DNA from: Hellea sp.
Lineage (GTDB): Bacteria; Pseudomonadota; Alphaproteobacteria; Caulobacterales; Maricaulaceae
NCBI GenBank assembly: GCA_039977295.1
Contig: JBDWDN010000009.1
Span: forward strand, 337,717-401,716
Direction of reading: 5' to 3'
Length of the DNA stretch: 64,000 nt
The position numbers and the translations under genes were made by a program. Position 1 is the stretch's first letter. Every line of letters starts with the position of its first letter. This document shows positions 7,781-64,000 of the stretch, in pieces. The notes beneath the pieces are model-generated. The model did not search any database and was not told the DNA's origin. It was given only the letters and a program-made list of their open reading frames with translations.

Positions 7781-7825
7781 CTTCGCCATACAACCTAATG
7801 CCCGCAAACTAAAAGAAAGACTATT

Positions 7826-9442: not shown

Positions 9443-9633
9443 TGCTAAATATTGCCCAGTATATTTCTTACGGTTTGGGCGGTTACGTCCTGATCGGATT
9501 AGTCTTCGCGCTCTATTTCGTGACGCGCGGTGTTCGTAATGAAGCCATCGCGGGAAAGAGTTTGATCCTCCGTATATTGCTTCTACCCGGCGCCGTGTTG
9601 TTGTGGCCTGTTTTACTCAAGGCAAGATCATGA
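9442..9633 (+). CDS. small membrane protein (63 aa)
   Basis: Two hydrophobic helices; translationally coupled within the operon. Confidence 0.3.
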   Translation: MLNIAQYISYGLGGYVLIGLVFALYFVTRGVRNEAIAGKSLILRILLLPGAVLLWPVLLKARS

Positions 9634-9733
9634 AGCGCGCGCACCGCCAAGTGCATAACATTATTTGGTTGATACTTCCCTTAGTGTTGATCACGATTTT
9701 ATGGATGGCCTTTGGCATCCATGGGAGCCAATT

Positions 9734-12725: not shown

Positions 12726-12765
12726 ACTTAAGCAAAGTAGATATGGTGACAGAATAACTCATCAT

Positions 12766-12885
12766 GCGAGCGGCTTAAAATCGTCCAAAACAACCCCTGG
12801 GCCAGAGGCGATAAAGGCCGAAAGTCGGACGCTAAGTTATTTCAGTTTAGGCGGCAAGCCGGACATCAACTGACATATATTAAAT
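12766..12885. repeat. intergenic repeat copy A (core GCGAGCGGCTTAAAATC...AGAGGCGATAAA...GGCAAGC)
   Basis: About 75% identical to copy B over ~100 bp; coordinates approximate. Confidence 0.55.
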
Positions 12886-12971
12886 TTTTGAGATAAAGTT
12901 TCTTGATTATGTTAGTATCATTTTGCGTAGCCTATCATTTTGTTTTACCTCGTAAGACAGAGGCCTAAGCA

Positions 12972-22822: not shown

Positions 22823-23014
22823 GGGGCGCTCCTTTCTACTCGCGAGTATACGCACGCCTTCTTTGTTTCACAACTGCGGAACATTTCAAAGATGGATACC
22901 CTGCGGCTCTCAGGCCCCATTTAAAATCATCTCCTATTGTAAATAGCGCCGCAATATATAACGAGGGTCGGTGCTTTAATGGCGCTATAAGCAAACAACA
23001 TTGGACCTGTGATA

Positions 23015-32942: not shown

Positions 32943-33013
32943 TCCGAGGTAGCTTAGTCAAAGCGCCGGACTCTGGATCCGGAGAGCGCGGGTGCAAATC
33001 CCGCCCTCGGACC
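32943..33013 (+). tRNA. tRNA-like element (anticodon-loop CUCUGGA gives CUG, Gln) with non-canonical D- and T-loops; possibly a degenerate tRNA or integration-site remnant
   Basis: A cloverleaf can be drawn with a 7-bp acceptor stem (TCCGAGG/CCTCGGA), a 5-bp anticodon stem (CCGGA/TCCGG) and a 5-bp T-stem (GCGGG/CCCGC). The T-loop is TGCAAAT (G at position 55 where U is expected), the D-loop lacks GG, and no CCA is encoded. A TTGACC -35-like hexamer lies ~50 bp upstream. Confidence 0.35.
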
Positions 33014-33027
33014 CCTCGGGATATAAT

Positions 33028-35169
33028 ATGATTGATAGAATTGGCGACAAATATGCTTTCCTTCAGCTCATTGCTGCAGAGGAAAAGGGTCATCCTAAAA
33101 AAATATCTCAATGGAAGAATGTCCTCTCCGGCATTAGAACGGGAGAGCTACAGATTGGGTCTCGCACTGCCGTATCTGGCATGCCGCTTTGGGCCACGCC
33201 CGAAATTATACGCGGGGGCTTTGCCACTGGCGGATATGCTGCGGGCGGCCCACTACGCCCGCACGAAAAAGAGCTAGCCGCCGAGCTGGGTTTAAAAACC
33301 CGTTCAATTCCTATCATTCGGACCAGTCTGAATAGCTGGCATCTAAGTTCAAACGGTGTTGATAGATTAAAAACATTGGCGAAAGAGCGGCGCTTTATAT
33401 GCGACCATCCCGAAGAAGCGGCGTTGATGAGCATCGCCTTACTCGCGGATGAAGACCACGCTTTGGCCTCAGACATTGTCGCGGCGATTTCTCCTTATTT
33501 TGATCGCCTGCGCTTTTTCCCGCGCGCCGTCGACGCCGCCAGACCAAAGGGCATTTATGTGCGCGACGTCTCAGAGGTTAGAGAAGCTTTGGCTCGTGTT
33601 CAGCCTCGTGAAGACATCAGCGTGCAATTCGACACTCTCAACATTTGGATCCCGCTTTATGATCGGTTGATTGATTTACTGGCTGATAGCAATGCCGTGG
33701 ACTGGAAATCCACTGCGAAACAATGGCAGAGAGATTTTTCCAGCGCAGATCGGAGTTTTAGATCGAAACGTTGGTCTGCTCGTCATTCACCTTTTGAACG
33801 CTGCCGCCTCGCGCTGGAAAAACGCGTGAACAAGAAACCCTTAAGCCAAAAAAATTTAAAATACGTACAGCTCGTTGTCACAAGACACCGCGCGAAACAT
33901 GGTATGGGGACGGCGCGAAAGAAGAAAAGATTGGAACAAGCCAAGCAGGACGTAAAGATATGGCATGACGCCATGGCCAACATTGTCCTTAATAGGCTGC
34001 AAGACGCTCATGGAGATTATGGACTGATTGACCCTGCAGCTTATTTAACTGCTCCCTCACAGTCCGAAGCAGGACCTGAAGCGCCCATAAATGCTGATAT
34101 TCCTCATACCATTCAGAGAAAAACCTTTGCAGCTTTGCAAGGGTCAATTGGGGCTTTGATCACAGGTGGACAAATCTCATCTCCTGAAATTTTTGCCAAA
34201 GTCCTACCGCAAATTACCGCGCAGGTTCAGGCCTCGGGTTTTGATGATGGGGATAAAGCGGCTGTTTTTTCGGAGTGCTACAAAGCCTTCCATAAAAGGC
34301 GGTCTCTACTCCTTTTGAATTTGGAGTCGCAAATTCGCATCACGGAAATTCCGTGGGTCAAAACCTTGCTAGTATCTCGAAAAGACAGGCCCGAGGATTC
34401 AGACCTGTCACGGACAGCGCTTACGGAATTTGTGTCCTTGACACTAACCCATTTTCCCCATGTTCAATTCCCAAATCCATTGATTGAGCAAATGCATGAC
34501 TTGGCCAAACGCGCAAATATTCACACCCCTCTTCTGCCTGAAATCGCAGCTGATATTTTTATGGGGCGGTTTTCCCAGCGGTTTGAAAAAGCGGCGCAAC
34601 ATACCGCGAAATATTATGAGGGCACACTTTATGCGCGTTACTATAATTTGCCCAAACAGATTCCCAGTGGCGCATTTGATAAATTATGCGCGGAACGCGC
34701 AGAGCCCCCTAGCCGGCAGGGATGGTCTAGCGCGCAAAACGGAACCATTATAGAGCAAGGCCTGATTTTAACATCGCATAATATGGCGGCATTATTTTCT
34801 GGGCTCGACCTGTCTAAATTAGAGTGCGGCGCCCTAGCGCTTAAATGTTTCGTTTGGATTTGCGATCGCTTGACAGCTGTTCCGCCCAGCTACCACGCCG
34901 AGCTCATTTCGCTCAAAAATTCAGCTTATGCCTGGCGGCAGATGATCGCTTTATTATCGGAGCTTCCGAAAAAGGACTTGCAAGACACCATTGAGCAAAT
35001 TCACGTCCATTTAGAGGGAACATCGGCCAGCTTTCAAAACCGTCTACGGCCCGTAATGAACGGTCTACACATTGCGGGGATGAAATCCAAACCTCTCACT
35101 GAGAGGTCAGATCAATTTCTTGGCTGGACAGTGGGACGCCATCCGCTATCACAATGGACTGACCTATAA
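33028..35169 (+). CDS. large hypothetical protein (713 aa), no recognisable domain
   Basis: Track ORF begins at a GTG inside the tRNA-like element; the first ATG is at 33028. Predicted mostly helical, no nucleotide-binding or catalytic motif found. Confidence 0.4.
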   Translation: MIDRIGDKYAFLQLIAAEEKGHPKKISQWKNVLSGIRTGELQIGSRTAVSGMPLWATPEIIRGGFATGGYAAGGPLRPHEKELAAELGLKTRSIPIIRTSLNSWHLSSNGVDRLKTLAKERRFICDHPEEAALMSIALLADEDHALASDIVAAISPYFDRLRFFPRAVDAARPKGIYVRDVSEVREALARVQPREDISVQFDTLNIWIPLYDRLIDLLADSNAVDWKSTAKQWQRDFSSADRSFRSKRWSARHSPFERCRLALEKRVNKKPLSQKNLKYVQLVVTRHRAKHGMGTARKKKRLEQAKQDVKIWHDAMANIVLNRLQDAHGDYGLIDPAAYLTAPSQSEAGPEAPINADIPHTIQRKTFAALQGSIGALITGGQISSPEIFAKVLPQITAQVQASGFDDGDKAAVFSECYKAFHKRRSLLLLNLESQIRITEIPWVKTLLVSRKDRPEDSDLSRTALTEFVSLTLTHFPHVQFPNPLIEQMHDLAKRANIHTPLLPEIAADIFMGRFSQRFEKAAQHTAKYYEGTLYARYYNLPKQIPSGAFDKLCAERAEPPSRQGWSSAQNGTIIEQGLILTSHNMAALFSGLDLSKLECGALALKCFVWICDRLTAVPPSYHAELISLKNSAYAWRQMIALLSELPKKDLQDTIEQIHVHLEGTSASFQNRLRPVMNGLHIAGMKSKPLTERSDQFLGWTVGRHPLSQWTDL

Positions 35170-39983: not shown

Positions 39984-41108
39984 TTAAACGATAAATAGGT
40001 TGTCCTTAGCCCTGATATACAATTCATTCCGCGTGACGACCTCCTCCCAATTCTTATGGGGCTTTGGAGCGCGGTACATGTTCGTTTGCCTACAGTAATA
40101 GCCGTCCACGCCCGTCATCATCCGCATCGTATCGGTGGCCGCTGCTTTCACGCCGTCATCCGTGACCCGCGCGCCCAAATAATAATCATTACCTGGCCAC
40201 GACACATGATCCCAGGCGACAAAGCTATAAAGCTCACAATCACTAAAATCAGTTGAGCTATCTCCTCCCAAAACCTCAGGCTTGCAGAGCTGACTTTTGC
40301 CGGGGTTATAAGGCGCCAAAGGCCTTATCATAAATTCGATATTCTTTATCCTGTGGGTCTCATTCACGCATTCATTATAGGGGTCATAATAGACGGCTTT
40401 AATGCCGCAAAACTTATCTCCATGCGTTTCGAGAAAGCGCATAAGCGCTGCCCTAAAGATATGCCCCATCTGCCCCTTAAAAGGGCCTGCAAACTGACCA
40501 CAGCCCATGCCGGGAATAGTTACAAATGCAGGACGGCCTCGCGCAATGGCGAGGCAATCAATATAGCTAAAGGCGGGAAGAAACCTGCGCTCATAAAGCT
40601 GGTAATATTTATCTTTGTCATAGTCATCATCCGCTGTTACCGCGTGCCAGTCCGCGGGAATATGCCCTCGGTCATTTCTTAGCAGCGCGCCGGGCGTATA
40701 GATCAGATGGCCCGTAAAAGGCGGGCTGTGCGTGAAGGGGTTTTCATGCGCGCCATTGTCATAAACCGTCACCGCCATCCCAATGCTGAAATCCCCTAAT
40801 AGACCTAGCTCAGTCAGCGTCCAATCCGACCCATCACCAACAACTTGGCTCTCCGCAAAAATCTGAGGCGTCTTACTATTAATGAGGATCGATAGGAGCT
40901 GCCACTTATCAAGGGTTTTGAGATCGAAGCTTCTTGCACCTCTACCGCGAGGCTCGAGAGCGCTTATTCCTTCAGCCAGCCTTGCGCCGTAAGGTCCGCC
41001 TTGGTTAAGACTAACCGCATATTGTTCTATACGGGCTAACGTCTCCTTGCTGAGAATTATAGAATAGTCACGTTCTGAATTTTGCATAGTTTTAACGGGC
41101 GATGCCAT
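39984..41108 (-). CDS. hypothetical protein (~374 aa) translationally coupled to ferredoxin-like gene
   Basis: Its ATG lies 1 nt after the ferredoxin-like gene's stop. It contains several conserved-looking Cys/His/Trp clusters (IPGMGCGQFAGP, FVAWDHVSWPGNDYY) but no motif I can assign. Confidence 0.4.
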   Translation of the reverse strand: MASPVKTMQNSERDYSIILSKETLARIEQYAVSLNQGGPYGARLAEGISALEPRGRGARSFDLKTLDKWQLLSILINSKTPQIFAESQVVGDGSDWTLTELGLLGDFSIGMAVTVYDNGAHENPFTHSPPFTGHLIYTPGALLRNDRGHIPADWHAVTADDDYDKDKYYQLYERRFLPAFSYIDCLAIARGRPAFVTIPGMGCGQFAGPFKGQMGHIFRAALMRFLETHGDKFCGIKAVYYDPYNECVNETHRIKNIEFMIRPLAPYNPGKSQLCKPEVLGGDSSTDFSDCELYSFVAWDHVSWPGNDYYLGARVTDDGVKAAATDTMRMMTGVDGYYCRQTNMYRAPKPHKNWEEVVTRNELYIRAKDNLFIV

Positions 41109-41109
41109 C

Positions 41110-41448
41110 TCATCCGTTGAAATTAGATTTCGCGGCAATATAGCTTTCATAACATAGGCAGTCTTGGCCAGAACATATATTACCATTGCGCTCATGACAG
41201 GTAGTAATCATAGAAAAATACTTTTTCAGCCTATCATCAGGGCCTCTATAATTTATGCAATCAACCATACAAACTCTGGCGGCCCGAAATACCTTCTTCA
41301 TATCATCGTCTGTTTTTGGTTGCTGCTTCACAAAAGAACTATCGTTTGGAGGCAAAGTAAATAGATCAGGAGCAACGCTTGAACAGCATCCACACGTAAG
41401 GCATTCATCTTGCTCTATGAAAACATCACCTTGCTCTTTTTTATGCAT
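41110..41448 (-). CDS. ferredoxin-like protein (single [4Fe-4S]-type Cys cluster) with Cys-rich C-terminal extension
   Basis: DECLTCGCCSSVAP...C pattern resembles divergent mono-cluster ferredoxins. There are more Cys at the C-terminus (CINY...C...CSGQDCLC). Confidence 0.4.
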   Translation of the reverse strand: MHKKEQGDVFIEQDECLTCGCCSSVAPDLFTLPPNDSSFVKQQPKTDDDMKKVFRAARVCMVDCINYRGPDDRLKKYFSMITTCHERNGNICSGQDCLCYESYIAAKSNFNG

Positions 41449-45134: not shown

Positions 45135-46340
45135 CTAAACTTTTTCTGCCCGAACATTCACGGGATCATACCCTTCGACATCCGCAATCCTATCTCGCGC
45201 CGACTCATCTATGTCCGCGTCATCCGAGATATATCTAGGTTCACCTAAGGGCAGATATAGTCCAAGGAGTGAGCGCTTTTTGGGCCATTCTTTTAAGGCG
45301 CTGAGTTTGGGTATAATTTCTAAGAGCCACCAAGGACCTTTGAGCGAGTTGTGATCACGGGCTTTGTGATCTTTCTTTGGATATTTGTATTTCGTCGTGT
45401 CTGTGTAAAGTTTTTCTCCCGTCACGTAATCTGCCATGCGGTCGAAGACAATGAGCCCGGCGGCTTTTGCCTCAGCGATCATCCAGATGAGCGGAAATTG
45501 CGACAAGCCGCTATCAACCCTTTTATGGCCGCCGCCTATATCGCTATGATAGCCTGCAAACCAACGCTGCTTTACGTCTTGCTTTGGCGCGTCGCCCGCC
45601 GCGTAAAATTGGGGTTTATAGTCTTGCCCTTCTTCCCACGGTTCTAAGCGAAACATGCGGCGCCGTTCATCAATCGCGGCAGCTTGCCGAAAAAATTCGA
45701 CGGCTGGGTTATTGGCCGTATGCGGTAATTTTTCGAGTTTGAAGGGCGGCCAAAACAAGTTTTTGTAATTGGGGATAATGACGGAGCTGACGGTATCCCA
45801 AAGACCTAAAAATTTTATGGCCGCGTTATGGGGGCGCATTACGCGCCGAAAATTTGCGCCGTTCCCTTCATATTCTCGCTTAAAATCTTCCTCTGGCAGT
45901 CCGGCCGGCCTAGCGCCTCTTATGGGGCTGGCCTGTTTATAGGCGGTTAGCGCGGCCCCGGATAAATGGACTTGGCGGCGTTTTAAAATGCCAATCTCAT
46001 AGACCATACCCGCCAATACGCGCGCCGTATGCGCCCCGCGGCTAAAGCCGAAAATATAGACATCATCGTCTTTTTCGTAATGACGGATTAAGAATTCATA
46101 AGCCCGAATAACATTTGCATCCAGCCCCACCCCGAACCCCATGCCCAGAACAGCATTATTAAGGTGTTGTTTCCAAAGGCCCCATGTATCCGTTCGCCCT
46201 AGCGTGCCAACGCCTTGATCATAAAATGTGACTTGGTCTTTGTTTTTCTTGAGAGAGCGATAGAGTTTGAGAACATTCGAAATATTCTCTTCGATCTGGT
46301 TACCCGTTCCGTCTAAACAGATGACGATATTTTTTGGCAT
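45135..46340 (-). CDS. DUF2235 alpha/beta-hydrolase (T6SS Tle1-like phospholipase family)
   Basis: N-terminal IVICLDGTGNQ motif and GFSRGAHTAR (GxSxG), diagnostic of DUF2235/Tle1-type hydrolases. No signal peptide. Confidence 0.65.
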   Translation of the reverse strand: MPKNIVICLDGTGNQIEENISNVLKLYRSLKKNKDQVTFYDQGVGTLGRTDTWGLWKQHLNNAVLGMGFGVGLDANVIRAYEFLIRHYEKDDDVYIFGFSRGAHTARVLAGMVYEIGILKRRQVHLSGAALTAYKQASPIRGARPAGLPEEDFKREYEGNGANFRRVMRPHNAAIKFLGLWDTVSSVIIPNYKNLFWPPFKLEKLPHTANNPAVEFFRQAAAIDERRRMFRLEPWEEGQDYKPQFYAAGDAPKQDVKQRWFAGYHSDIGGGHKRVDSGLSQFPLIWMIAEAKAAGLIVFDRMADYVTGEKLYTDTTKYKYPKKDHKARDHNSLKGPWWLLEIIPKLSALKEWPKKRSLLGLYLPLGEPRYISDDADIDESARDRIADVEGYDPVNVRAEKV

Positions 46341-46854: not shown

Positions 46855-48165
46855 TTACTGAACCAATGCTTCTAATTTTGCGAGCCGTGCTTCTTGAGCA
46901 TCAAGACGAGCTTGCATTTTCTTTTTCTCTGCATTGACTTGCGCAATATAGATATGCGCTTTTTCAAGCTCATTCAGCATGCCTGTCACCTTATCGCTTA
47001 AATTGATGGGTCCAGTTTGTGTTGGGCCAACAACAGGGAGATATTTCTTATCAAACATCAATTCGGCATGCTCTTCAATTGACGGCAAGTCATAATCAGC
47101 ATCAAATACAGCGTCACAGCCAGAGCTACATGAGCCTTGAGTTGTGATCGTCCCCTGAATGGTTACATTGCCACTGGCATCCATCATAAATTCAGGCGTG
47201 CCGCCATCGTCGAGCGCCAAAATGATCCGATTTGAAGCCAATAACATTCCGCCATCCGTGGCAGAATTAGCCTCGCTTAATTGAATACCAGCACCTGCTC
47301 CGCCATTTGCAACTGTAATTTGCGGGCCTGCAATTGTAAGGTTCCCGTCAGTATCCAAAATCATCTCTGGATTTCCGCCATCGTCGATGGCCAGTATAAG
47401 CCGGTTGCTCGCCAATAATAAGCCAGCATTATTAGTGGAACCAGACTCACTAAACTGAATCCCCGCGCCGCCTGTGCCTGAGTTTTCGATATTTATTTTA
47501 TCGCCTCTGACGTCGAGTGGTTCGCTCGGAGCGTCCGTGCCTAAACCCACATGACCCGACGCGGCTATAAAAATGGAATCTTCTGGTGCGTTAGGTTTCG
47601 CCCTGAAAAATAACTTACTACCATTCGTTACATCCCGAATGAAAAAGTTAGATTCATTTGCGGCGAGATCATATGTTTGCGGTGTGAACCCGTCAGACCC
47701 GTCTTGCTCTAATCGCATTGTCGGCGTGTTGCCCTCAACGATATGCAGATCAACGACAGGCGTAGAGGTTTTAATACCGACATCTCCGTCGTCTTCTACG
47801 TAGAGCGTATTAATCGGAGCCCCTGCTTCGATGGTAAACGGGCGTCGCCCCGCTGTAGCGTCTTCTACGGCGAATAAATTAGCGCCGCCATTCGATGTTT
47901 CATTGGCAACAATACGCCAATCATTTCCTGGAAAGCTTGCTGACGCGGATGTGTCATCGAAATGAATACGCAAATTGTTCTCTTTGAGCCTCAACGTATC
48001 AAAGCCAAAGCTTTCGCCGTTAACGCAATCAAAGCCAACACACAGGCTTCCCTGCACGATAACGTCCGTCGTAAAGACTTGGGCGGCGGCGGGTGCCGCG
48101 AGAAAACTTGCTGAGAGAAAAGCTAAGACCGCTGCGGAAGTTTTTGATTTTTTATAAAATGTCAT
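46855..48165 (-). CDS. secreted repeat protein with tail-fibre-like internal duplications and C-terminal coiled coil
   Basis: Signal peptide. Duplicated ~45-aa unit (LLLASNRLILAIDDGGNPEMILDTDGNLTIAGP / MLLASNRIILALDDGGTPEFMMDASGNVTIQG). C-terminal heptad coiled coil ...AQVNAEKKKMQARLDAQEARLAKLEALVQ. Confidence 0.45.
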   Translation of the reverse strand: MTFYKKSKTSAAVLAFLSASFLAAPAAAQVFTTDVIVQGSLCVGFDCVNGESFGFDTLRLKENNLRIHFDDTSASASFPGNDWRIVANETSNGGANLFAVEDATAGRRPFTIEAGAPINTLYVEDDGDVGIKTSTPVVDLHIVEGNTPTMRLEQDGSDGFTPQTYDLAANESNFFIRDVTNGSKLFFRAKPNAPEDSIFIAASGHVGLGTDAPSEPLDVRGDKINIENSGTGGAGIQFSESGSTNNAGLLLASNRLILAIDDGGNPEMILDTDGNLTIAGPQITVANGGAGAGIQLSEANSATDGGMLLASNRIILALDDGGTPEFMMDASGNVTIQGTITTQGSCSSGCDAVFDADYDLPSIEEHAELMFDKKYLPVVGPTQTGPINLSDKVTGMLNELEKAHIYIAQVNAEKKKMQARLDAQEARLAKLEALVQ

Positions 48166-48174
48166 GATGCGCCC

Positions 48175-48636
48175 CTATCGACCAAATGGTGAAAGACTGG
48201 ATTTCTTAGGCCCTGTAGCCGCTTCTTCAACAGCGCCGTCCGGCGCTACTATTGAACCGTTGAGAACTCTAAAGGTGCCTGACTCTGTCATGGACTTATT
48301 TACAAATTGTCGCGCGGCATCACCGCGTCCATTATTTAGTCCCATAGGATTGGCTTCAACACGCTCACTCGTCGCGCCTGTCAGTTCCCAATTATAAAGA
48401 CCATCGGCCAAACTACCATTTTGTGAGAGTGACATGAAGGGTGATTGAAACTCAGAAAAACTCTTAGAGTAGTAATCGTTCGGACCTGTGACGGTCATTG
48501 TCATATTAGACATCTTAACAGAAGGGTTTGCCCTAAGGGTGCTTCCGCCAAATGCCGGGTCGGCCGCTAAAGCGCCGCTCGCCGGAAGGAGAAACGCCAT
48601 AGCAGCGGCCCCTATCAGAGTTTTTCGGTATGTCAT
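48175..48636 (-). CDS. small secreted protein (153 aa), co-operonic with the repeat protein
   Basis: Signal peptide with AXA site (ALAADP). 9-bp gap to the downstream gene. Confidence 0.35.
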   Translation of the reverse strand: MTYRKTLIGAAAMAFLLPASGALAADPAFGGSTLRANPSVKMSNMTMTVTGPNDYYSKSFSEFQSPFMSLSQNGSLADGLYNWELTGATSERVEANPMGLNNGRGDAARQFVNKSMTESGTFRVLNGSIVAPDGAVEEAATGPKKSSLSPFGR

Positions 48637-51900: not shown

Positions 51901-52014
51901 GATTATGATGAAGTCAAACACGTTACTATCAAATGGGTAGATGGTAGCCAGAGCGTCATCACTGAAACCCTTGCTCAGGGCGCGACTTACACGGTGCGCC
52001 GCAAGCGCCCTTAG
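48904..52014 (+). CDS. fusion protein: DUF318 (two-CxxC) permease domain + FG-GAP/VCBS repeats + ASPIC/UnbV domain (second CRTAC1-like protein)
   Basis: The N-terminal ~360 aa are polytopic and contain GVCVNCAAP and AFDIIICAALLAGG, typical of the DUF318 'predicted permease'. The C-terminal ~650 aa have GDFDSDGDNDIVLA, GDIDGDGDIDGAIG, DINDDQSLDLLVGN, DFNNDEWPDVYIANG, DMDQDGDLDII repeats and an UnbV-like end. Track start is a TTG; the first ATG is at 48904. Confidence 0.65.
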   Translation: MTSLITKHRGLRFLLALGLLILITYLFWTSSRYPALDDKAMMGGEIHLEDPLSFEAHWTIDPSFPVWKKILLTTGNWLHTNRQGMFFGVLMGAIFLTLMRYLGRLNFKSAFMNSLLGMFIGTPLGVCVNCAAPIAKGLYSGGARAETMLAAMVASPTLNIVVLTMLFSIFPFYMAVTKVALCIFVILVIVPIICQFLPKHQQQLPLSEQRVCKIPVLANGSENETIGAALKGFSRDFLSDYWYIFKLTVPLMLLAGFLGAMVATLIPIEMLSSLKFGVFGLIIIAVIGTFLPVPIAFDIIICAALLAGGLAVGSVMTLLFTLGIFSIYSFFIVGQSVSIRAAGMLSLAIIIIGVSSGFSVETWHANKSRQALEILSTDAAPQAPTISAKRAPNIDTGVSSSAAISKLNTSGSVIELRHSEFAPRSTAGQKPFTKLEAFTIGLDKPIEFTFRDMWPPFWEGRSVSAGDFDSDGDNDIVLASTEKGLYFYKNDGSGNFASYDVRLGDIADWPIFNAALIDFNNDEGLDVFIATYGKGNFILWNENGTFSQDRLTPVANTPEALLSLALSFGDIDGDGDIDGAIGNWAAGWYRRVPGEESRNRIIRNEDGRMTGDSFSELQELPGETLSILLSDINDDQSLDLLVGNDFELPDIFYYGVGDGAFNPISKADDIIPVATNTTMGIKSHDLDNDLIPEIYSVQIAGRASGISQRLNMQPIENYCDGIQQADQKAICQKNMDIKTWYKSGNNFDPSYAGKCLQLEPVYQAQCKAMLIKDLAIQAQDPSICELIKADQAVVRSFCDIHFKPSPVLTPEDLRNSYPQIKKRNVLLKRGNDGRYTDVTETHGLGVGGWSWDTKIADFNNDEWPDVYIANGTWVPNEFTPSNMFYVNDGTGNFSEMAAEYGLEDYLMTAAATRLDMDQDGDLDIITIPVNGPMQAYINNTQTGNAISFRLRDDIGNRFGLGAKIIIHYGPDGKRRQVREIQSGGGFQSFDSPDVHFGLGDYDEVKHVTIKWVDGSQSVITETLAQGATYTVRRKRP

Positions 52015-53111
52015 GGCATTGGCGTCCAATCGCGGACCATCTTTTGGGCTTCATTTATTTGTCCCGCAGTCATGACGTTCGCAATTTCGGCGCGCGCTTC
52101 ACTGCCATTTTTATGACCTTGCGTGGCTGCCAAATTAATCCACATATATGCAAGGACATAATCCTGCGGCACCCCAACGCCGCCAAAGTAAAGTTGACCC
52201 AAATTATATTGAGCGTCAGGATCTCCGGCCTTTGCCAAAGCTCTAATGTCTTGGAGCGAGTTAGGGGCCTGTGCAGTGTCTTGTCTATTCGCGGTCACCC
52301 CCGATACACCGCCCGCTTTCCTGTACCATCTTTTCGCTTCTTCTTCATCAAGCTTAACGCCAAAGCCATTTTCGTATAAGACGCCCAAATTTGTCATGGC
52401 TGTCGACAATCCATTCTCTGCGGCAAGACGGTACCACTTTGCGGCTATTGAATAGTCTTGATCAACGCCAAGTGCTTTTGTGTAGAGAATCCCTAAGTTA
52501 TTTTGCGCGCGAGCGTTGTTTTGGCCAGCCGCCTTCTCATACCATTTACGGGCCTTTGCATAGTCTTGGGCGGCAGCCTTCCCCTGTTGATATAAAACCC
52601 CAAGACTGACTTGTGATTCCGAATGGCCTTGTTTTGCGGCCAGCTTATATAACCTCACCGACATTCGTGGATCAGCATTTGAAATCAGCTTTTTTTCATG
52701 CAGCAGAGCTAATGAATGCTGAGACAAAGCATCCCCTTGGTCGGCGGATTTTTTAAACCACGTAAAAGCGGTGTCAAAGTTTTGGGCAACGCCCAGGCCA
52801 GATGTATAGAGATCGCCCAATACACGGCCTGCCAAAACGTGACCTTGGATTGCCGCTTTTTTATACCAATAGGCCGCTTGTTCGTAATCTTGCGAGACCC
52901 CTTGCCCATTCAAATATAAACGTGCGAGCCCAGCTTGGGCCTCCATGTCACCGGACGCCGCTAAGGGTTTTAAGCGCGCCAGGAGCTGTTCAAAATCTTG
53001 TTGATTGAGAGCCTCTTGAACGTCTGGCTGCGGCTCGGCGGCGACTGACGGCTGTGCAAGGGAGAGCGCCGTCAATAAGAGGCATGAGCCGGCTATAAGT
53101 TTAACCGTCAT
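52011..53111 (-). CDS. Sel1-repeat (TPR-like) periplasmic protein
   Basis: Signal peptide plus at least seven ~36-aa Sel1 repeats (AQxxLGxxYxxGxGVxQDYxxAxxWYxKAA). Confidence 0.75.
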   Translation of the reverse strand: MTVKLIAGSCLLLTALSLAQPSVAAEPQPDVQEALNQQDFEQLLARLKPLAASGDMEAQAGLARLYLNGQGVSQDYEQAAYWYKKAAIQGHVLAGRVLGDLYTSGLGVAQNFDTAFTWFKKSADQGDALSQHSLALLHEKKLISNADPRMSVRLYKLAAKQGHSESQVSLGVLYQQGKAAAQDYAKARKWYEKAAGQNNARAQNNLGILYTKALGVDQDYSIAAKWYRLAAENGLSTAMTNLGVLYENGFGVKLDEEEAKRWYRKAGGVSGVTANRQDTAQAPNSLQDIRALAKAGDPDAQYNLGQLYFGGVGVPQDYVLAYMWINLAATQGHKNGSEARAEIANVMTAGQINEAQKMVRDWTPMP

Positions 53112-54304
53112 TCGCTCTGATTAGCCTGACGCTCCGTCCAGTTACGCGCATTGGTTTGAGCCTGCGCGATTTGTTCTGGTGTCATTAATTTGCTGTAGAT
53201 TTTGCGATCTTTTATAGCCTCTTTGTTCCCCGATGCCGCTGACAGGTTAAGCCACATATGCGCGGCGATGTAATCCTGCTCAACACCCCTGCCAGTCCCG
53301 TAAGCCCGCCCTAATGCATATTGCGCAGGGCCGTGACCGCTTTCTGCCGCAATGAGATAAAGCTGAGAGGCCATAACATCATCTTGTTTAAGACCGACAC
53401 CCCCAGCATAAAGTCGCCCTAATTTCCAAATGTCCGCCGCGCTTCCCGTTTCGGCCATACGGACATAACGTTCTGCCGCTTGTTCATTCCCCTGCTCTGC
53501 AGCGAGATAAAATAAGTTAGCAGCTTTGGCTGTATCTTTTTCAACATCTTTGCCATGGAAATAGAGAAAGCCGACGACCAATTGGGACTTGTCATAGCCT
53601 TGCTGAGCGGATTTTTCCAAGAGCGCTAAACCTCTTGCCGTATCCGAAGGCATGGCCGCATCTTGTAGCAATTTATACCCGACGATATATTGCGCGCGTT
53701 TATCGCCGCCATCCGCAGCTTTATTGAGCCACCTCAAGCCTTTACCAGTATCTACCGGAACCTCTTGACCTGACATATAAATCATACCGAGCGTATTTTG
53801 CGCTTCTAAATGGCCTTGCTCCGCCGCTTGTTCCATAAAGCGAATGGCCTCTTCCATATTCTTTTCAGCGCCAGATCCGCTCTCTAGCATAAGCCCCGTT
53901 TGAAACTGCGCTTTCGAATAACCCTGTTCTGCAGACTTACGCATCCATGCATAGGCTTCCTTATAATCCTGCGGAACACCTTGGCCGATAATATGCGCCA
54001 TCCCTATGGTATATTGAGCTTCTGGAAGGCGGGATTCTGCGGCCTCCGTTATCCACTTGGCGGCCGTGTTGGCGTCCGGGTCGACCCCTTGGCCTTTTGC
54101 ATACATATTACCGATGAGAAGCTGCGCGGCAGCATTGCCATCATTTGCAATAGGCTCGAGTAATGTCAAAGCCTCAGCATAATTTTGGCTATTATACGCC
54201 TCTTGCGCGGCGACTAAATCGGTGCTTTTTATGTCACTTTGAGAACACCCAGCGCAGAGAAGTGCTGTTATAAAAAGAACTGAAAACCCGCGCCGAAAAC
54301 TCAT
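53108..54304 (-). CDS. Sel1-repeat lipoprotein
   Basis: Lipobox LLCAGCS plus at least eight Sel1 repeats. 4-bp overlap with the downstream Sel1 gene. Confidence 0.75.
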   Translation of the reverse strand: MSFRRGFSVLFITALLCAGCSQSDIKSTDLVAAQEAYNSQNYAEALTLLEPIANDGNAAAQLLIGNMYAKGQGVDPDANTAAKWITEAAESRLPEAQYTIGMAHIIGQGVPQDYKEAYAWMRKSAEQGYSKAQFQTGLMLESGSGAEKNMEEAIRFMEQAAEQGHLEAQNTLGMIYMSGQEVPVDTGKGLRWLNKAADGGDKRAQYIVGYKLLQDAAMPSDTARGLALLEKSAQQGYDKSQLVVGFLYFHGKDVEKDTAKAANLFYLAAEQGNEQAAERYVRMAETGSAADIWKLGRLYAGGVGLKQDDVMASQLYLIAAESGHGPAQYALGRAYGTGRGVEQDYIAAHMWLNLSAASGNKEAIKDRKIYSKLMTPEQIAQAQTNARNWTERQANQSE

Positions 54305-58193: not shown

Positions 58194-59282
58194 ATGCAGA
58201 AAAAAACTAAGCCTCTTCTCTTCCTTTTCTTCTTTATTGCCATAATTTGGCCTCTGAGCTTTCTGTTGTTCAGAGCTAAATCACCGGAAGACAAAAAAGT
58301 ATCCGACATCGTCGCAAGCCAGGCTTTTTTATCAACATTGCAAAATAAAGATGCAGAGGCCTGTATTGCGATGACCTATATGGACAGCGTCGATGTTATT
58401 ATCTTAGGCAGTTCCGTAGCCTATTCCAACATAGACCCCGTCATATTACCAACGCACTTCGGAGGGCAATCCGTCGCCGTCTGCGCTCTACCAGGATGGA
58501 ACACAGAGTTTTTTGATATGTTCTTTAAGTATTTGGAGGAAAACAATATCGCGCCAAGCCGTATAGTTTGGCTGGCTGACGGCGCTAGTCATTTGAAATT
58601 TAGTGTTCACGAAAAACGCATAGAGAACGCCAAGAGAGCCTTCTTCGACGATGAGTTTCGCAATAAAACAGCAGGGCGCTGGATTGAAAACTTCGAGCTC
58701 GAAAGTCAGTCAAAGGATGCGATAAACGCCTATGACCAACGCATTTCATATCATTCAGGCCAGTTCTCTGATTTAAAGCCTGAAGATGTTACCCAAATAA
58801 TTTTAGAGACTGAGTTCAATTCTGAAACCGCAGCGGCGACAATTTCAAAGACCATAAAACCCGTTCCAGGCAATAAGAAGAAATTGCAAAAATTATGCGC
58901 CAATATTGTTCAGAGAAATATCATTCTGGACGTCATTGTTACGCCAACCCCAACAACATCCGACGATATTTTCACAGACTTTGGTGATGATGGTGAGGCT
59001 TCGACAGAAAAATCGATGGCGGGTTATTACGCCGAGAACATTGGATGTGTTCGATCTGTAATTTCAGATTCTTTAGAAAGTTGGGGATTGGATAATCGTT
59101 ACTTTTTAAATAGACGCCTAAAAGATGACTATCCTTACGACCTCTGGAAAGACCCCGCATCTTTTGGCGCTCAATACGACACCTTTAGCACATTGGAAAA
59201 AAGAAACTTCTACGACACAATCCATTTGAATGGTATCGGCGCAGTAATTTTCACAGAGGAATTGGCCAAGCGCCTAAGGTAA
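58194..59282 (+). CDS. MBOAT-partner protein, DltD/AlgJ-like (N-terminal TM anchor + extracytoplasmic hydrolase-like domain)
   Basis: The ATG at 58194 immediately follows the MBOAT stop. TM anchor, then a GSSVAYSN block resembling the DltD serine motif. Confidence 0.45.
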   Translation: MQKKTKPLLFLFFFIAIIWPLSFLLFRAKSPEDKKVSDIVASQAFLSTLQNKDAEACIAMTYMDSVDVIILGSSVAYSNIDPVILPTHFGGQSVAVCALPGWNTEFFDMFFKYLEENNIAPSRIVWLADGASHLKFSVHEKRIENAKRAFFDDEFRNKTAGRWIENFELESQSKDAINAYDQRISYHSGQFSDLKPEDVTQIILETEFNSETAAATISKTIKPVPGNKKKLQKLCANIVQRNIILDVIVTPTPTTSDDIFTDFGDDGEASTEKSMAGYYAENIGCVRSVISDSLESWGLDNRYFLNRRLKDDYPYDLWKDPASFGAQYDTFSTLEKRNFYDTIHLNGIGAVIFTEELAKRLR

Positions 59283-59672
59283 GCCTCCAATAAATTTGAG
59301 CTCTCGCGCCAAGAATAGCTTATGCTTTGGCTCCAACATTTGATTTTGATTCAATGCGATAAGTTGCGTCTCTGATATATTTCCACATTCGACTAAAAAC
59401 CCAATTGCCCAGCTCTTGAGCCCGGCATCCGTTTCTAGGTCTGCGAGTTTTAAATAAACCCTGACGTCAGCATCTGATATAGGTGAGCCCTGTCGGTCTT
59501 TGAAAAACTTTTCGTAAAACTGCATTCGAATATGCTCTGCATCTGGATCGGGCAGCCGCGCATATTGTGTTTCAACAAAGGTTTGATCCACGATATTCGC
59601 GGTGGTCCATTTTTCATGGAGGCCAAGATCATGTAGCATCTCTTTTAGACAGGAGATCACAAAGCCTCCCAC
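59274..59672 (-). CDS. small hypothetical protein (132 aa), first gene of low-GC small-gene array
   Basis: No known motif; overlaps its neighbour. Confidence 0.35.
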   Translation of the reverse strand: MGGFVISCLKEMLHDLGLHEKWTTANIVDQTFVETQYARLPDPDAEHIRMQFYEKFFKDRQGSPISDADVRVYLKLADLETDAGLKSWAIGFLVECGNISETQLIALNQNQMLEPKHKLFLARELKFIGGLP

Positions 59673-59947
59673 TCAAAACGCGTGTTCCAACGATAAAGAT
59701 GATCATCACCCTTATGCTTTTCCAAAATATTGAGGGTTACCATATTTTCAAGCAGATCGAACAACATGTTCCCTAAAGGATTTTCCGTCCAAAATATCCA
59801 TTTTTTGTCGCCAAAACTATAAATGCTTTCGCCGTCTGAGGGAGGCGGAATGATCCCTAAGGCCGCGCCTGCGTGAAACGCCGCAACATCTATTTCAGTC
59901 CATGTTTCCAAAGATTGTCTCAAACCCTGCATAGCCACATTTTTCAC
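59657..59947 (-). CDS. small hypothetical protein (96 aa), immunity-protein-like size
   Basis: Tightly packed in the array; no known motif. Confidence 0.3.
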   Translation of the reverse strand: MKNVAMQGLRQSLETWTEIDVAAFHAGAALGIIPPPSDGESIYSFGDKKWIFWTENPLGNMLFDLLENMVTLNILEKHKGDDHLYRWNTRFEWEAL

Positions 59948-59949
59948 CC

Positions 59950-60486
59950 TTAAGAGTCTCGCTCTAGATATTTAAGAAATAAGTCCCGCGTCGTGCCCCA
60001 GCCGAATTTATCGCGTCTACTGGCGATGTCTGCCATTTCTTGAAAGATTGAGATAACATCAATCCCTTTCGCTGTGCCGCTAGCATGATAGGCACTTAAT
60101 GCGAGTAAAGCGTCGCGCGTATCTTTGCCTTGATCGTCAATGACAAAGAGGATCATATGTTTGCGAAGACCGTCTGGCGTATTAGGATCGGCCTTTAATA
60201 CTGCAGAGTATATCAAGGCGTCATTTTTATACATCAAGTCGATAATGTGTTGACGTTGATCGGGCGTATAAAATTCAAACTGGTCAACAATCTCCTTAAA
60301 CAATGTTTCAACGGCGCCGCGCAGTCCCGCCTCATCAACGGGGTGCGGTCTATTAAAAATTTGCTCTTCCCAATCTGGAGCGTTCATATCAATTTCAACA
60401 TTGATAATGGGCGCGAGCTGTTGATTGAGAAAGGCAGCTCGCCGTTCCCAATCCTCAAAAGCGCTTTGGAATGATTTATGAGTCAT
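59950..60486 (-). CDS. hypothetical protein (178 aa)
   Basis: No known motif; 2-bp gap to its neighbour. Confidence 0.35.
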   Translation of the reverse strand: MTHKSFQSAFEDWERRAAFLNQQLAPIINVEIDMNAPDWEEQIFNRPHPVDEAGLRGAVETLFKEIVDQFEFYTPDQRQHIIDLMYKNDALIYSAVLKADPNTPDGLRKHMILFVIDDQGKDTRDALLALSAYHASGTAKGIDVISIFQEMADIASRRDKFGWGTTRDLFLKYLERDS

Positions 60487-60521
60487 GAGCGGCCAATTCA
60501 GTTATCTGCTCATAGCAATTA

Positions 60522-60851
60522 TTATAGCGCCTGAACATTACCGCTCCCGACGCTCTTGGAGCCTTCTTTAATAACAAAAGAAACGCCCGGTAATAAGCCC
60601 GCGTAATCCACATTTCTATATGGGAGTTTCACGTCAACCTTAATATCCGTATTGAACGCGATTACATCATCGCATCTTATAAATTGGACACCTAAATATT
60701 CCTTGTTCGGGTCATCATCTATAACCAAATGCGGCCTATACTGCCCGCCATCAAACTCTGGCAAAACAGACCTGCCATTCTCTTCAGCGGAATAAAATTT
60801 AACGACTAATTTCATAGAATTATGAGATATAGAACTTCTTACATTTTCCAA
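60522..60851 (-). CDS. small hypothetical protein (109 aa)
   Basis: Low GC (~41%). Confidence 0.3.
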   Translation of the reverse strand: MENVRSSISHNSMKLVVKFYSAEENGRSVLPEFDGGQYRPHLVIDDDPNKEYLGVQFIRCDDVIAFNTDIKVDVKLPYRNVDYAGLLPGVSFVIKEGSKSVGSGNVQAL

Positions 60852-61215
60852 TAATTTCTAAACACTCATGTTCTGAAAAATCTTCCATAAACATTATATC
60901 CATAGTTACGACGCCCGCACATGATTTCGCTAAACTCGCGATAAAATCATCTTTGGAAAAATCAGACTGAATTATGAGAGCTAAACGGACATTCTCATTG
61001 TCTGCATATCGTAACATTGACAAATAGGCTCCGCGAACAGCTGAAACAGTTTCTAACCTTTCGGATATATCGTTTTCCAACCTCTCAGTGTCTTCTCCAA
61101 ATGGCGACCCCAAGAACTCCATTCTATCTGATTGCTCTTTGACGACTTTATACTTTTTCTTACGGAATATGTTCTTAAGCATATCAACCCCTTCAATTGC
61201 AGCTCCGGCAAACAA
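60820..61215 (-). CDS. small hypothetical protein (131 aa)
   Basis: Overlaps downstream gene by 32 nt; no known motif. Confidence 0.3.
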   Translation of the reverse strand: MFAGAAIEGVDMLKNIFRKKKYKVVKEQSDRMEFLGSPFGEDTERLENDISERLETVSAVRGAYLSMLRYADNENVRLALIIQSDFSKDDFIASLAKSCAGVVTMDIMFMEDFSEHECLEIIGKCKKFYIS

Positions 61216-61318
61216 TAAACTTTATACGGTTCTATTGCTCACTGTCCTATGTTCCTCCCATATAGAGTTATGTTTGCGCCCAAATTATGTCTTTTCAGTC
61301 TAACTCTAATTCTTTCTC

Positions 61319-61711
61319 TTACCATTCATAACCTACGATCCTAATACCCTCTTCATAGACCTGAATGGGCCATAGCCCAGCCGTGTTGAGGAGCTCAACC
61401 AAGGCCTGAATATCATTCGAGACATTAGCGGTTGAAATGTCTGATTTTGAGATTTGTAAGAATTCAATATGCGCGAATAGAGCATAGGATATTCCGCCAC
61501 ATTCCCCGAAATCATCATCGCTCTCAAAACTTGGCCCAGGCACAGCGACGCTAAAAATGCGGTCTTGATTGACGAACTTAATACCCACCTCACGGAGAGG
61601 CGGCGCGGCAGCATGGAGTACCGCGAATAGTTTTCGCCACTTTGCATTACTCATATGCTTCACGCTGGCACTGGCTACGCGGCGCTCTAGGCGTCTGTCT
61701 ATCTCATTCAT
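61319..61711 (-). CDS. small hypothetical protein (130 aa)
   Basis: No known motif. Confidence 0.3.
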   Translation of the reverse strand: MNEIDRRLERRVASASVKHMSNAKWRKLFAVLHAAAPPLREVGIKFVNQDRIFSVAVPGPSFESDDDFGECGGISYALFAHIEFLQISKSDISTANVSNDIQALVELLNTAGLWPIQVYEEGIRIVGYEW

Positions 61712-61753
61712 GCTACTTACCGTGTTGATTAGTGATGATGGCTTTCGATGAAT

Positions 61754-62233
61754 TCACCAAACTATAATCTCCTCAACGTCAAAATTTAGATCAAATTGAA
61801 GGGACAACTCCATATCAGGGATATAGTTTGGAGACGCCCAAAAGAGGCATCCTCCATTTTCAAAAAACATCACTTTTCTCAATCTAAGATCTTCACTCAA
61901 ACCTTTGGCATCACCCCCAACCTCTTGACCGATGGGACCAAAGGCCGCCGATGTGACTCTCGTCCCCAAGACATCTCTAAAGCTTGAGATAATATCCTCG
62001 GACAAATTCATAAAAATTTTTTCGCATATTGTAACAGTCTTTAACCATTGATCCCTTGTCGCGTTTTCAATTTCGGCTTGTATCATGACGCTGATATCAG
62101 ATTTTGAGATCTCACACCTTCCTTCTAGAATATCAGTCGAGGCAGGGTTTAACGGGCCAAAGACCTCAGATTGAATGTGGTCGATATTTGTCTTCATAAG
62201 ACTAAAAATCCCTATGCTTAAAAGGGCCCGCAA
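61754..62233 (-). CDS. hypothetical protein (159 aa)
   Basis: No known motif. Confidence 0.3.
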   Translation of the reverse strand: MRALLSIGIFSLMKTNIDHIQSEVFGPLNPASTDILEGRCEISKSDISVMIQAEIENATRDQWLKTVTICEKIFMNLSEDIISSFRDVLGTRVTSAAFGPIGQEVGGDAKGLSEDLRLRKVMFFENGGCLFWASPNYIPDMELSLQFDLNFDVEEIIVW

Positions 62234-62251
62234 TTTCGCGCCAAACTCTAC

Positions 62252-62542
62252 TCATAGAGCTTGCGCAGATCTTGTAATCTTAAGTCTGTCATCTCTATAG
62301 AGACGCCAAGCGGACTGTGCCTTTTGCAAAGTTTCGGTTATAGATTTTTGTGAAACTAAGTAGTCTTCATAATACCCCCGCTCAATTTTACCTACAGTGC
62401 TTTGATAGGTTTCCATTAGGGCGGCATCAGCTTTTTCATATTTCCCTTGAGCCGCGCAGAGGGCCTCGCCGAGATCACAGCCTTCTTGAGCAAAGCAACT
62501 CACCGGAGCTAATGAGAATAATGCAATAAGAAATATCTTCAT
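62252..62542 (-). CDS. LprI-like (DUF1311) periplasmic protein, putative lysozyme-inhibitor family
   Basis: Signal peptide with Cys pairs and the C-terminal LQKAQSAWRLYRDD motif typical of the DUF1311 helix bundle. Confidence 0.5.
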   Translation of the reverse strand: MKIFLIALFSLAPVSCFAQEGCDLGEALCAAQGKYEKADAALMETYQSTVGKIERGYYEDYLVSQKSITETLQKAQSAWRLYRDDRLKITRSAQAL

Positions 62543-62818
62543 AGGATGGCCTTTTTAGACTTTCTCATGATAGTCTCCATTACCGCATAGAGGCGAAAAA
62601 GACACGGTGCTAACACTGTTTTCATTTCACGCGCCGGGTTTCGATTTTTGTGTTCTCTTTTAACCGCAGCTGTCGTGAGAGCTCTGTCAATATCGCGGGA
62701 CGCTTTTGCCCGTTCAGTTCGTCAATCAATTGGTCTGGGCGATGACGGTAGATGTCGCCCCAGAACTTTCGAGCAAGCTTATTCCATACTCTCCAAGTCC
62801 CATCGGGTTGAGCTTTTC

Positions 62819-63283
62819 CTACGTATCGTCTGGACGGTTTTGTAATGATGTTGCCTCCCTTGAAAGCTTTAGTGTTTTAAGATGGTTATCATAATCTAAA
62901 TCGTGAGCGGATTTGCATAAAAGACATTGCCCTCTTTGATGCGTCTTTTGGTGTCCAGAAGAGGACGCTGTCTTAGTTTGACAATGCGGGAAGTTAGAGA
63001 AGCCATCATAAATGCCGCCTACATCTAGAACCTTCTGGACAGTCCCTCTGGCTTTGCAGCTTCGACAGCATAGCTCCAAATAGCGATAAGCAAAAATCTC
63101 AGCATAATTTCTCTCGGAAAAACCCTTTTTGAATTTATATCCCTTTTCTCGCCTTAAGAATAATCGATATGGAAGGGCGGGACACACATCTTGGGTCTTG
63201 CAGGTTTTGATAATAAAAAGTGGACCGGCCTCACCTTCGGTAACGTGGGACCGTTTCATGCCCTCTTGACCTGGGCGGGTCAT
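62819..63283 (-). CDS. HNH-like endonuclease-domain protein
   Basis: Two CxxC knuckles (CCRSC ... CLLCKSAH) flank His-rich HQKTHQ and GGIYDG segments in an HNH-like arrangement; moderate certainty. Confidence 0.4.
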   Translation of the reverse strand: MTRPGQEGMKRSHVTEGEAGPLFIIKTCKTQDVCPALPYRLFLRREKGYKFKKGFSERNYAEIFAYRYLELCCRSCKARGTVQKVLDVGGIYDGFSNFPHCQTKTASSSGHQKTHQRGQCLLCKSAHDLDYDNHLKTLKLSREATSLQNRPDDT

Positions 63284-63311
63284 CCCGCGACGTTTATGTT
63301 TGTTTCGATGA

Positions 63312-63728
63312 CTAATTTTCTAATCCGAGCTTCGTTCCGCACCACGGGCAAAAGTTAATCCCGGCACTATTAAGATACCAGGTGCCATATGATCCCCTGC
63401 CCGTTTTAAATTCCAGATCTATTTCGGGAATAGCGCCATCAACAGTTTTGAACATATTCATGCAGCAATAGTGACTAGATTTTTCTAACATTTTCTGCCG
63501 TGCCGGATTCAGAGATTCTGACCATTTTGCGCAGACTTCACACTCTGATACATGCTTCACATAGCTTAGAAATTTCTCATCCGCATCCGGAATAAGGCTT
63601 ATTATTAAACCTCTATCGAATTCTGCGAGTCCTGATAGGATCATCGCTAAGGGATCACCAATATCGGCGCCGCCATAAAGGGAAAGCACCTTAGCGGCAA
63701 TGTCATCTTGAACAGAATTGCATTTCAT
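63312..63728 (-). CDS. small Cys-pair protein (138 aa; CEVC ... CPWC zinc-ribbon-like)
   Basis: Two CxxC pairs ~60 aa apart; no other motif. Confidence 0.3.
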   Translation of the reverse strand: MKCNSVQDDIAAKVLSLYGGADIGDPLAMILSGLAEFDRGLIISLIPDADEKFLSYVKHVSECEVCAKWSESLNPARQKMLEKSSHYCCMNMFKTVDGAIPEIDLEFKTGRGSYGTWYLNSAGINFCPWCGTKLGLEN

Positions 63729-64000
63729 AACTCCCGCCTCCCTTTATTTTAAAGCCTCAGACTTTTTTAATAACAAACGCGTGCCGATTTTAGGTATGAA
63801 ATATTTCGGGTAAAATTAAGACCAATTTGTGATTACTGCTATTTTCCTTCTATTTTGCTGACGTACCATTCAGGATTTTGGCTCGCGGCATACCTTGTGA
63901 GCACATCTAAATGCGTCTGCAATTTTTCATGCTTATTCCCACTAGGAAAATGAATGACAAAGCATCCCCTCTCGGCATGTTCAATTATGTATTGGGCCCC

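Follow-up and report, generated by a model that had tools for sequence, protein, structure and literature searches.

Heterogeneous polyimmunity loci were defined by Zhang, de Souza, Anantharaman, Iyer and Aravind in 2012 (PMC3482391), who noted that some taxa hold such loci while lacking toxins and whose table of immunity families includes fused immunity domains. Variable poly-immunity clusters have also been reported downstream of Rhs effectors (bioRxiv 10.64898/2026.07.13.738213), and Ross et al. 2019 and Martinkus et al. 2026 are cited in that preprint for Rhs poly-immunity arrays or acquired interbacterial defence clusters. Among individual families, DUF1311/LprI is named as a domain implicated in type VI secretion system (T6SS) immunity (PMC12135965), and a DUF7716 protein has been reported to serve as a T6SS HNH effector's cognate immunity protein (PMC13224477). 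Here we analyse an array of small genes at one end of a 64,000-nucleotide stretch of the genome of Hellea sp. (assembly GCA_039977295.1, contig JBDWDN010000009.1, positions 337,717 to 401,716), hereafter the window; the genus is placed in Alphaproteobacteria, Maricaulales, Robiginitomaculaceae.

The array consists of ten minus-strand open reading frames (ORFs) of 96-178 amino acids (aa), named O1 to O10, within positions 59274-63728 of the window. We tentatively favour, at close to an even chance, the reading that this region forms the downstream end, 4.5 kb long, of a large, chromosomally fixed, heterogeneous orphan poly-immunity island, and we infer a role of the array proteins as toxin inhibitors from the associations that individual families have elsewhere. 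The locus would then be a further example of an already described kind, the heterogeneous polyimmunity locus, with families that are nearly all uncatalogued. In such an island, each small protein would neutralise a different one of the toxins that competitor bacteria deliver, and no production of these toxins by the cell itself would be required. Most members are acidic and would be cytoplasmic, and the LprI member would apparently be exported. The features of the array are as follows, with the start sites of O1, O4, O5 and O7 corrected from homologues.

O1, 59274..59660, minus strand: 128 aa (corrected start), acidic, soluble protein of an uncharacterised family
O2, 59657..59947, minus strand: 96 aa, overlapping O1 by 4 bp and lying 2 bp from O3
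O3, 59950..60486, minus strand: 178 aa, locus tag ABJN69_07985
O4, 60522..60815, minus strand: 97 aa (corrected start), EF-Tu domain III homologue
O5, 60820..61182, minus strand: 120 aa (corrected start), SseB_C-like small protein
O6, 61319..61711, minus strand: 130 aa, DUF6678-like
O7, 61754..62197, minus strand: 147 aa (corrected start), acidic, of a small uncharacterised family
Remnant, 62208..62261, minus strand: 17 codons, MSRVWREIAGPFKHRDF followed by a stop, of a gene intact in a relative (L005)
O8, 62252..62542, minus strand: 96 aa, truncated LprI/DUF1311 with a signal-like N-terminus
Gap, 62543..62818, no strand: 275 bp without a listed minus-strand ORF
O9, 62819..63283, minus strand: 154 aa from the first ATG, basic, Cys-rich
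O10, 63312..63728, minus strand: 138 aa, with a helical N-terminal half and a C-terminal Cys-rich, zinc-ribbon-like part (HYCC...CPWCG)
Eleventh array gene, 63849..64000, minus strand: C-terminal ~50 codons, stop at ~63849, exiting the window

An earlier sequence-only reading of the window had described ten head-to-tail minus-strand genes, and the same ORFs were recovered at exactly the coordinates it gave. Within 59274-63728, coverage by ORFs of at least 90 aa amounts to 88.7% on the minus strand and 0% on the plus strand, compared with a mean of 2.5% and a maximum of 21.7% in 500 shuffles. After start correction, neighbouring genes overlap by 4 bp or are separated by 2-54 bp, with two exceptions, the 136 bp between O5 and O6 and the 275 bp between O8 and O9; the O5-O6 gap comes in addition to the earlier description, which gave overlaps or gaps below 50 bp and one 275-bp gap. 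From the shared strand, the 2-4-bp spacings and the 4-bp overlaps only, we infer that several of the genes are translationally coupled within one transcription unit. All-against-all BLASTP revealed no paralogy within the ten ORFs (nothing below E = 0.3), and the members have distinct homologue sets. The array therefore has the tandem, one-strand, tightly spaced arrangement of a heterogeneous polyimmunity locus as well as its composition from unrelated families, and such a tight array of mutually unrelated members speaks for immunity. Furthermore, 8 of the 10 proteins are net acidic and none of these 8 carries a signal-like N-terminal hydrophobic segment, which would also fit an immunity function; a signal-like N-terminus occurs in O8 alone.

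The composition of the array is less distinctive than had been claimed. Its GC content is 43.5% and that of the remaining window 47.0%, rather than ~40% and ~52%; the adjoining 55.0-59.3 kb, which hold the MBOAT operon region, are equally low (43.4%), and 7% of equal-sized windows have a GC content at or below that of the array. Codon usage, scored in the annotated frame with the long genes of the window as the training set, yielded log-likelihoods of 0.17-0.36 per codon for 9 of the 10 ORFs, in the range of the long genes themselves (0.18-0.33); only O9 has a value close to zero. With host-like codons and a locus syntenic with that of a relative, the picture of a recent low-GC island was overstated.

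That relative is represented by a Logan contig (loci L005 and L012). The flanks common to the window and the relative include MBOAT, its partner gene, a 370-aa gene without a Pfam match and TauD, as well as an FG-GAP/ASPIC gene and two 368-398-aa genes at the position of the window's Sel1 pair. This pair in the window consists of two adjacent Sel1-repeat proteins (52011-54304, minus strand, ~191-200 bits each) adjoining the TauD-family dioxygenase and the MBOAT operon that flank the array. In the relative, the array runs in the order O10, O9, one other gene, O7, O6, O5, O4, O3, O2, O1; L005 lacks LprI and has a different gene in that position. Window positions 64000-62865 correspond to L005 6592-7723, with 77% DNA identity. 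Three flank proteins that were compared share 79-87% identity between the two genomes, whereas the array proteins share 52-77%.

In the relative, the array goes on for at least another 17 kb upstream and reaches a total of at least 43 small genes in more than 21 kb; nine of them form a block on the opposite strand. Nearly all of these genes lack a Pfam domain, the exceptions being LRR_4 (faint), DUF5071, DUF7677, DUF7716 (weak), Cys_rich_CPCC and DUF6331. The eleventh ORF at the edge of the window is 69% identical over 49 aa to L005 6592-6738, and because it matches the corresponding place in L005, the array very probably continues beyond position 64000 as in the relative. Thus, the earlier placement of the array in the last 4.5 kb, up to the window end, holds for the ten ORFs, but the array does not stop at 63728, since the eleventh ORF exits the window. 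The intact O9 homologue of the relative (L005 7278-7730) had been overlooked in the gene table of the contig, which contains an overlapping 171-aa ORF in another frame.

Gene content varies between relatives, as expected of a polyimmunity locus, in three of the loci, L002, L004 and L005. The O3-O2 pair is preserved in L002 and L005, with other small genes joined directly to it in L002. In L004, homologues of O7, O6 and O3 are interleaved with other small genes, an O9 homologue lies close by, and a PcfJ-like gene stands at the head of the array. Further islands with several families in common were found in L020, L021 and L023, and the L021 island contains an LprI homologue (34%). The mosaic content of these loci, together with the faster divergence of the array than of its flanks, would be consistent with an immunity function. 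The same holds for a ~274-aa family without a Pfam domain, found in the island of the relative (L012 10001-10825) and in L013-L018. Members of this family from Alpha- and Gammaproteobacteria, Bacteroidota and Firmicutes share 54-80% identity, a cross-phylum conservation that points to recent horizontal spread, and the family recurs in small arrays, together with DUF7716 in Shewanella and with LprI in Halomonas. The occurrence of DUF7716 both in the island of the relative and beside another island family in Shewanella likewise argues for an immunity role.

The region around the 275-bp gap differs from the corresponding region of the relative. A blastn comparison with L005 delimits a 602-bp segment (62263-62864) that only the window has and that comprises the gap, the truncated LprI gene and the 3' tip of O9. 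Next to it lies the 17-codon remnant, which is 76% identical over 17 aa to L005 7726-7776 in tblastn (in blastn, window 62262-62206 corresponds to L005 7719-7775); the L005 gene encodes ~117 aa, and the rest of it (7776-8208) is missing from the window. In addition, O9 of the window has lost an upstream ATG that L005 keeps. No minus-strand ORF of at least 50 aa was found inside 62543-62818, and the reading frames of the gap had no Pfam match and no homologue in loci L001-L109. Because the gap lies inside a window-specific segment next to a gene remnant, it is best seen as part of a recombined or decayed patch, and not simply as the single decayed cassette that had been suggested.

An exhaustive HMMER search with the concatenated sequences of O1-O7, O9 and O10 retrieved 699 proteins at E<=1e-3, with all nine query segments matched; homologues thus exist for each of the nine ORFs searched, most of which had been taken for orphans. 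A Pfam scan of the 150 best representatives identified DUF6678 in 7, SseB_C in 2, and Imm45, NUDIX and GTP_EFTU_D3 in 1 each. Among the ten ORFs themselves, the only above-threshold Pfam match is that of O8 to LprI, and an NCBIfam scan added nothing significant. Supported family assignments are LprI and EF-Tu domain III, with DUF6678 and SseB_C below threshold. Searches with PADLOC and PHROGs gave sub-threshold matches only (E 0.0045-0.074), profile searches of the PDB with the O1, O2, O3, O6 and O9 families gave nothing significant, and neither the array DNA nor, in tblastn, O3 and O4 matched plasmids.

The presence of an LprI/DUF1311 gene in the array would favour an immunity function. O8 scores 25.6 bits against Pfam LprI (PF07007; cut-off 22), confirming the resemblance noted earlier. 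However, the gene is truncated, since the match is confined to profile positions 17-72 of 106 and the ORF stops 9 residues past the last matched residue (87), and its product is probably a fragment or without function. A missing C-terminal LprI helix in another frame stays a reading impression, as an attempted alignment with Halomonas LprI yielded none.

The O2 family, with invariant residues W16, G31, K49, W53, N56 and N88, provides a connection to a catalogued immunity family. In one homologue (P0059), an O2-like domain is fused to Imm45 (59 bits), and another (P0067) consists of three tandem O2-like domains; both architectures would be in line with immunity. An Imm45-O2 fusion also closes another array of small genes (L110). 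Other relatives of O2 are located on Vibrio megaplasmids and in nine viral contigs (IMG/VR), where they lie amid DNA methylases and small unannotated genes.

O6 belongs to a family with an MS..KWRK motif (invariant M20, S21, K24, W25, R26 and K27) and 161 relatives in metagenome contigs. Its own match to Pfam DUF6678 (PF20383) is sub-threshold (19.7 bits, cut-off 24.5), but DUF6678 is matched by seven family representatives (best 1.8e-7), and a homologue on a Vibrio plasmid carries the annotation DUF6678 family protein. L040 encodes an RHS-repeat protein of 1401 aa that has a canonical core end, and the third gene downstream of it on the same strand is an O6 homologue, a position that would suit an immunity gene. 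In a different metagenome contig (L062), an O6/DUF6678 homologue is one cassette of a repeat-separated array, in which 25 copies of a 104-nt repeat, 274-956 bp apart, lie between small same-strand genes over positions 1757-13034; this looks like a chromosomal integron-type cassette array. In many long loci the surroundings of O6 homologues are unremarkable.

O4 is a stand-alone homologue of EF-Tu domain III, because in the PDB its family profile matches EF-Tu only and over the full length of that domain. The profile gave 55 matches in the PDB, all of them EF-Tu (best E=6.9e-6); the best alignment spans the whole length, with profile positions 6-103 against EF-Tu 305-393, and includes the GGR..P/YRPQ and F.iREGg.tVG.G motifs. 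One family member matches Pfam GTP_EFTU_D3 (PF03143) at 3.5e-4, and the window protein alone is sub-threshold (NCBIfam EF-Tu, E=0.023). The L005 orthologue is 72% identical, and another homologue adjoins a divergent tyrosine recombinase in an integron-like layout. The EF-Tu chains matched by the profile include 5i4q and 5i4r, which we take to be complexes of a CdiA toxin, its immunity protein and EF-Tu. That O4 might serve as a decoy is only a guess. A Porin identity for O4 was rejected as sub-threshold Pfam noise.

The remaining members are characterised mainly by their homologues. O1 was set at 128 aa because an identical protein (P0003, 100%) has that length; it has 11 representative homologues, some of them with an additional C-terminal domain, an L005 orthologue with 65% identity and no match in Pfam, NCBIfam or the PDB. 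O3 represents a large uncharacterised family with the motifs DQG.D.RDA and YG.GSTR, and its predicted structure is all-alpha (predicted local distance difference test score 96.5), with no real PDB counterpart. One O3 homologue lies beside Fic and TraG/TrbB/TrbC conjugation genes (L003), and distant ones are located after gcvP, in an ordinary context. O5 falls just below the Pfam SseB_C cut-off (22.0 bits against 22.5), and two members of its family match SseB_C; a 100% identical protein of 120 aa is available (P0004), and the L005 orthologue is 52% identical. O7 has an L005 orthologue with 65% and an L004 homologue with 41% identity, and its sole Pfam match, to RexA (17 bits, sub-threshold), was treated as noise.

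The two Cys-rich proteins likewise have relatives of their own. The O9 family has genuine homologues and an invariant CC..C, FPH and C..C. The HNH-like nuclease that had been seen in O9 found no support, as no HNH model was matched, no HNH residues are conserved and a structural model of moderate confidence has no HNH-like fold match. An origin of O9 from IS1 InsA was also rejected; an NCBIfam match at E=0.059 is the sole evidence for it, O9 has conserved homologues of its own, and the downstream frame is without a match. O10 has a 100% identical counterpart (P0002) and an L005 orthologue with 73% identity; its Pfam matches to DUF7575, DUF6980 and zinc ribbons are weak and each under the cut-off, and in a scan of genome contigs the one match, in Jeotgalibacillus, was a spurious zinc ribbon of 15 residues.

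Several observations weigh against a poly-immunity island. No array ORF in the window reaches a Pfam Imm or SUKH model, LprI being alone above its cut-off, and the PADLOC matches are sub-threshold only (E 0.016-0.033). Neither a toxin, T6SS, Rhs or CdiA gene nor an orphan fragment of a toxin came to light in the window; a six-frame search by regular expressions, which recovered L040 as a positive control, identified no Rhs core end (PxxxxDPxGL) or VENN motif there, and no ORF matched a toxin family in Pfam, so that no orphan toxin/immunity cassette was recognised in the window. An Rhs core end was found only in the unrelated L040, the island loci being known from Pfam gene tables and the core-end scan, and the sequence covered stops short of the upstream end of the island. 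The association with Rhs concerns one neighbourhood out of ~25 long loci, and most O6 contexts are without a toxin. Homologues of O3 and O6 also occur in ordinary operon-like contexts, those of O2 in phage contigs amid DNA methylases, one of O6 in an integron-like array and one of O4 beside a tyrosine recombinase. Moreover, the conserved order from O10 to O1 and the host-like codons suggest a calmer history than the rapid turnover typical of immunity arrays. Of the polymorphic-toxin immunity array proposed earlier, the immunity half survives as the best reading, on indirect evidence, and the toxin fragments find no support.

The main rival, which we consider a real but somewhat doubtful possibility, is a generic accessory island of mixed function, a sink for small mobile genes that was later inherited vertically and has no common immunity role. 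Its genes would derive from integron cassettes, phages and conjugative elements, and regulators, anti-defence genes, decoys and immunity genes could be among them. The contexts of the relatives fit this origin (O6 in the array with 25 repeat copies, O4 adjoining a divergent tyrosine recombinase in the manner of an integron, O2 in nine viral contigs and on Vibrio megaplasmids, O3 beside Fic and TraG/TrbB/TrbC genes, and the PcfJ-like gene heading the L004 array), as does the absence of a known domain from most members. However, the few assignable members are all tied to immunity, through LprI, the Imm45 fusion, DUF7716 and the Rhs neighbourhood; no transposase or integrase was found in the 64-kb window, the array contains no repeat, and the PADLOC and PHROGs matches are sub-threshold. 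An unlikely alternative is a remnant of an integrated conjugative or phage-like element, corresponding to its cargo or leading region, whose small genes would act in anti-restriction or anti-defence on entering a new host. The dense one-strand layout would suit such a remnant, as would the L003 and L004 contexts, with their type IV secretion system coupling protein, TrbB, TrbC, Fic and PcfJ-like genes, and the DNA methylases near O2 relatives in viral contigs. However, no conjugation, integrase or phage structural gene lies beside the array in the window or in the 30.8 kb of the relative, two diverged genomes carry the array at the same position of the chromosome, adjoining the MBOAT operon, and O6 has no relative among the 2.9 million viral contigs of IMG/VR; the sub-threshold PADLOC and PHROGs results count against this origin as well.

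A chromosomal integron cassette array would also consist of small same-strand genes of unassigned function, and relatives of O6 and O4 occur in an integron-like repeat array and beside a tyrosine recombinase, respectively. For the window itself it is effectively excluded. No multi-copy repeat family was detected in 58.5-64 kb, where only chance-level two-copy repeats of up to 29 nt occur, by the same tool that identified the 25 repeats of L062, a general repeat search rather than one with a dedicated attC model; most spacings, 4-bp overlaps or gaps of 2-54 bp, are too short to make attC sites between the genes likely, and the window contains no integrase. At the other end of the range of possibilities, the island could represent a library of dozens of undescribed immunity or decoy families in a toxin-poor marine host, with O4 as a decoy for toxins that bind or modify EF-Tu. 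Under this extended version, which we regard as improbable, O1, O2, O3, O7, O9 and O10 would be new immunity folds.

Elsewhere in the window, two further proteins that had been named as conflict-system parts were verified, namely a Tle1-like DUF2235 phospholipase domain (45135-46340, minus strand, 260 bits) and a SUKH-1 protein (22166-22855, 32.9 bits). Their presence would be favourable to the poly-immunity reading of the array. Two same-strand genes upstream of the Tle1-like gene (436 and 153 aa; 46855-48636, minus strand) have no Pfam match, and the Pfam scan of window proteins revealed none that belongs to a T6SS. A strong match to the MavL macrodomain effector family (PF24754, 426 bits) lies at 39984-41195 on the minus strand, in what is a metagenome-assembled genome of a free-living marine Hellea. 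The sole transfer RNA (tRNA) gene of the window, tRNA-Gln (CTG) at 32943-33014 on the plus strand, overlaps the mechanical start of a 725-aa ORF (32992-35169), which therefore probably begins at a site downstream of this.

If the immunity reading is true, the window would contribute ~10 candidate immunity families and the wider island more than 40, all but a few of them outside current domain catalogues, from a poorly studied marine alphaproteobacterial lineage. The island would represent a large case of stored toxin defences with no toxin gene found nearby in the available sequence, and O4 would become a concrete candidate decoy against EF-Tu-dependent or EF-Tu-targeting toxins. If it is wrong, the locus is still a clean case of an island that accumulates small genes and is passed on vertically. 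Whichever reading holds for the island, the O4 and O6 families also occur in integron-like contexts and the O2 family in phage contigs.

Compared with the described systems, the locus resembles heterogeneous polyimmunity loci in its tandem unrelated small proteins, in its variable content and in the fusion or repetition of its domains in homologues (Imm45-O2, 3xO2). It differs from them in having no catalogued Imm or SUKH family within the array in the window, in a gene order largely conserved with the relative and in the very large size of the island of the relative, with at least 43 genes; the immunity role here is putative. In contrast to Rhs-associated poly-immunity arrays, which are thought to protect broadly against non-cognate effectors, no Rhs, VgrG or PAAR module adjoins the array in the available sequence and no mobile-element signature is present, but the two have in common non-homologous putative immunity genes and a GC content lower than that of the surroundings, and the O6 family occurs in such a place in L040. 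At the level of single members, O8 departs from LprI/DUF1311 (PF07007) in the partial coverage of the profile, and agrees with it in passing the gathering score and in its signal-like N-terminus. Unlike EF-Tu, O4 stands alone with 97 aa in an accessory island, without the GTPase domain or domain II, whereas its family aligns over the full length of domain III (PF03143), at EF-Tu ~305-393.

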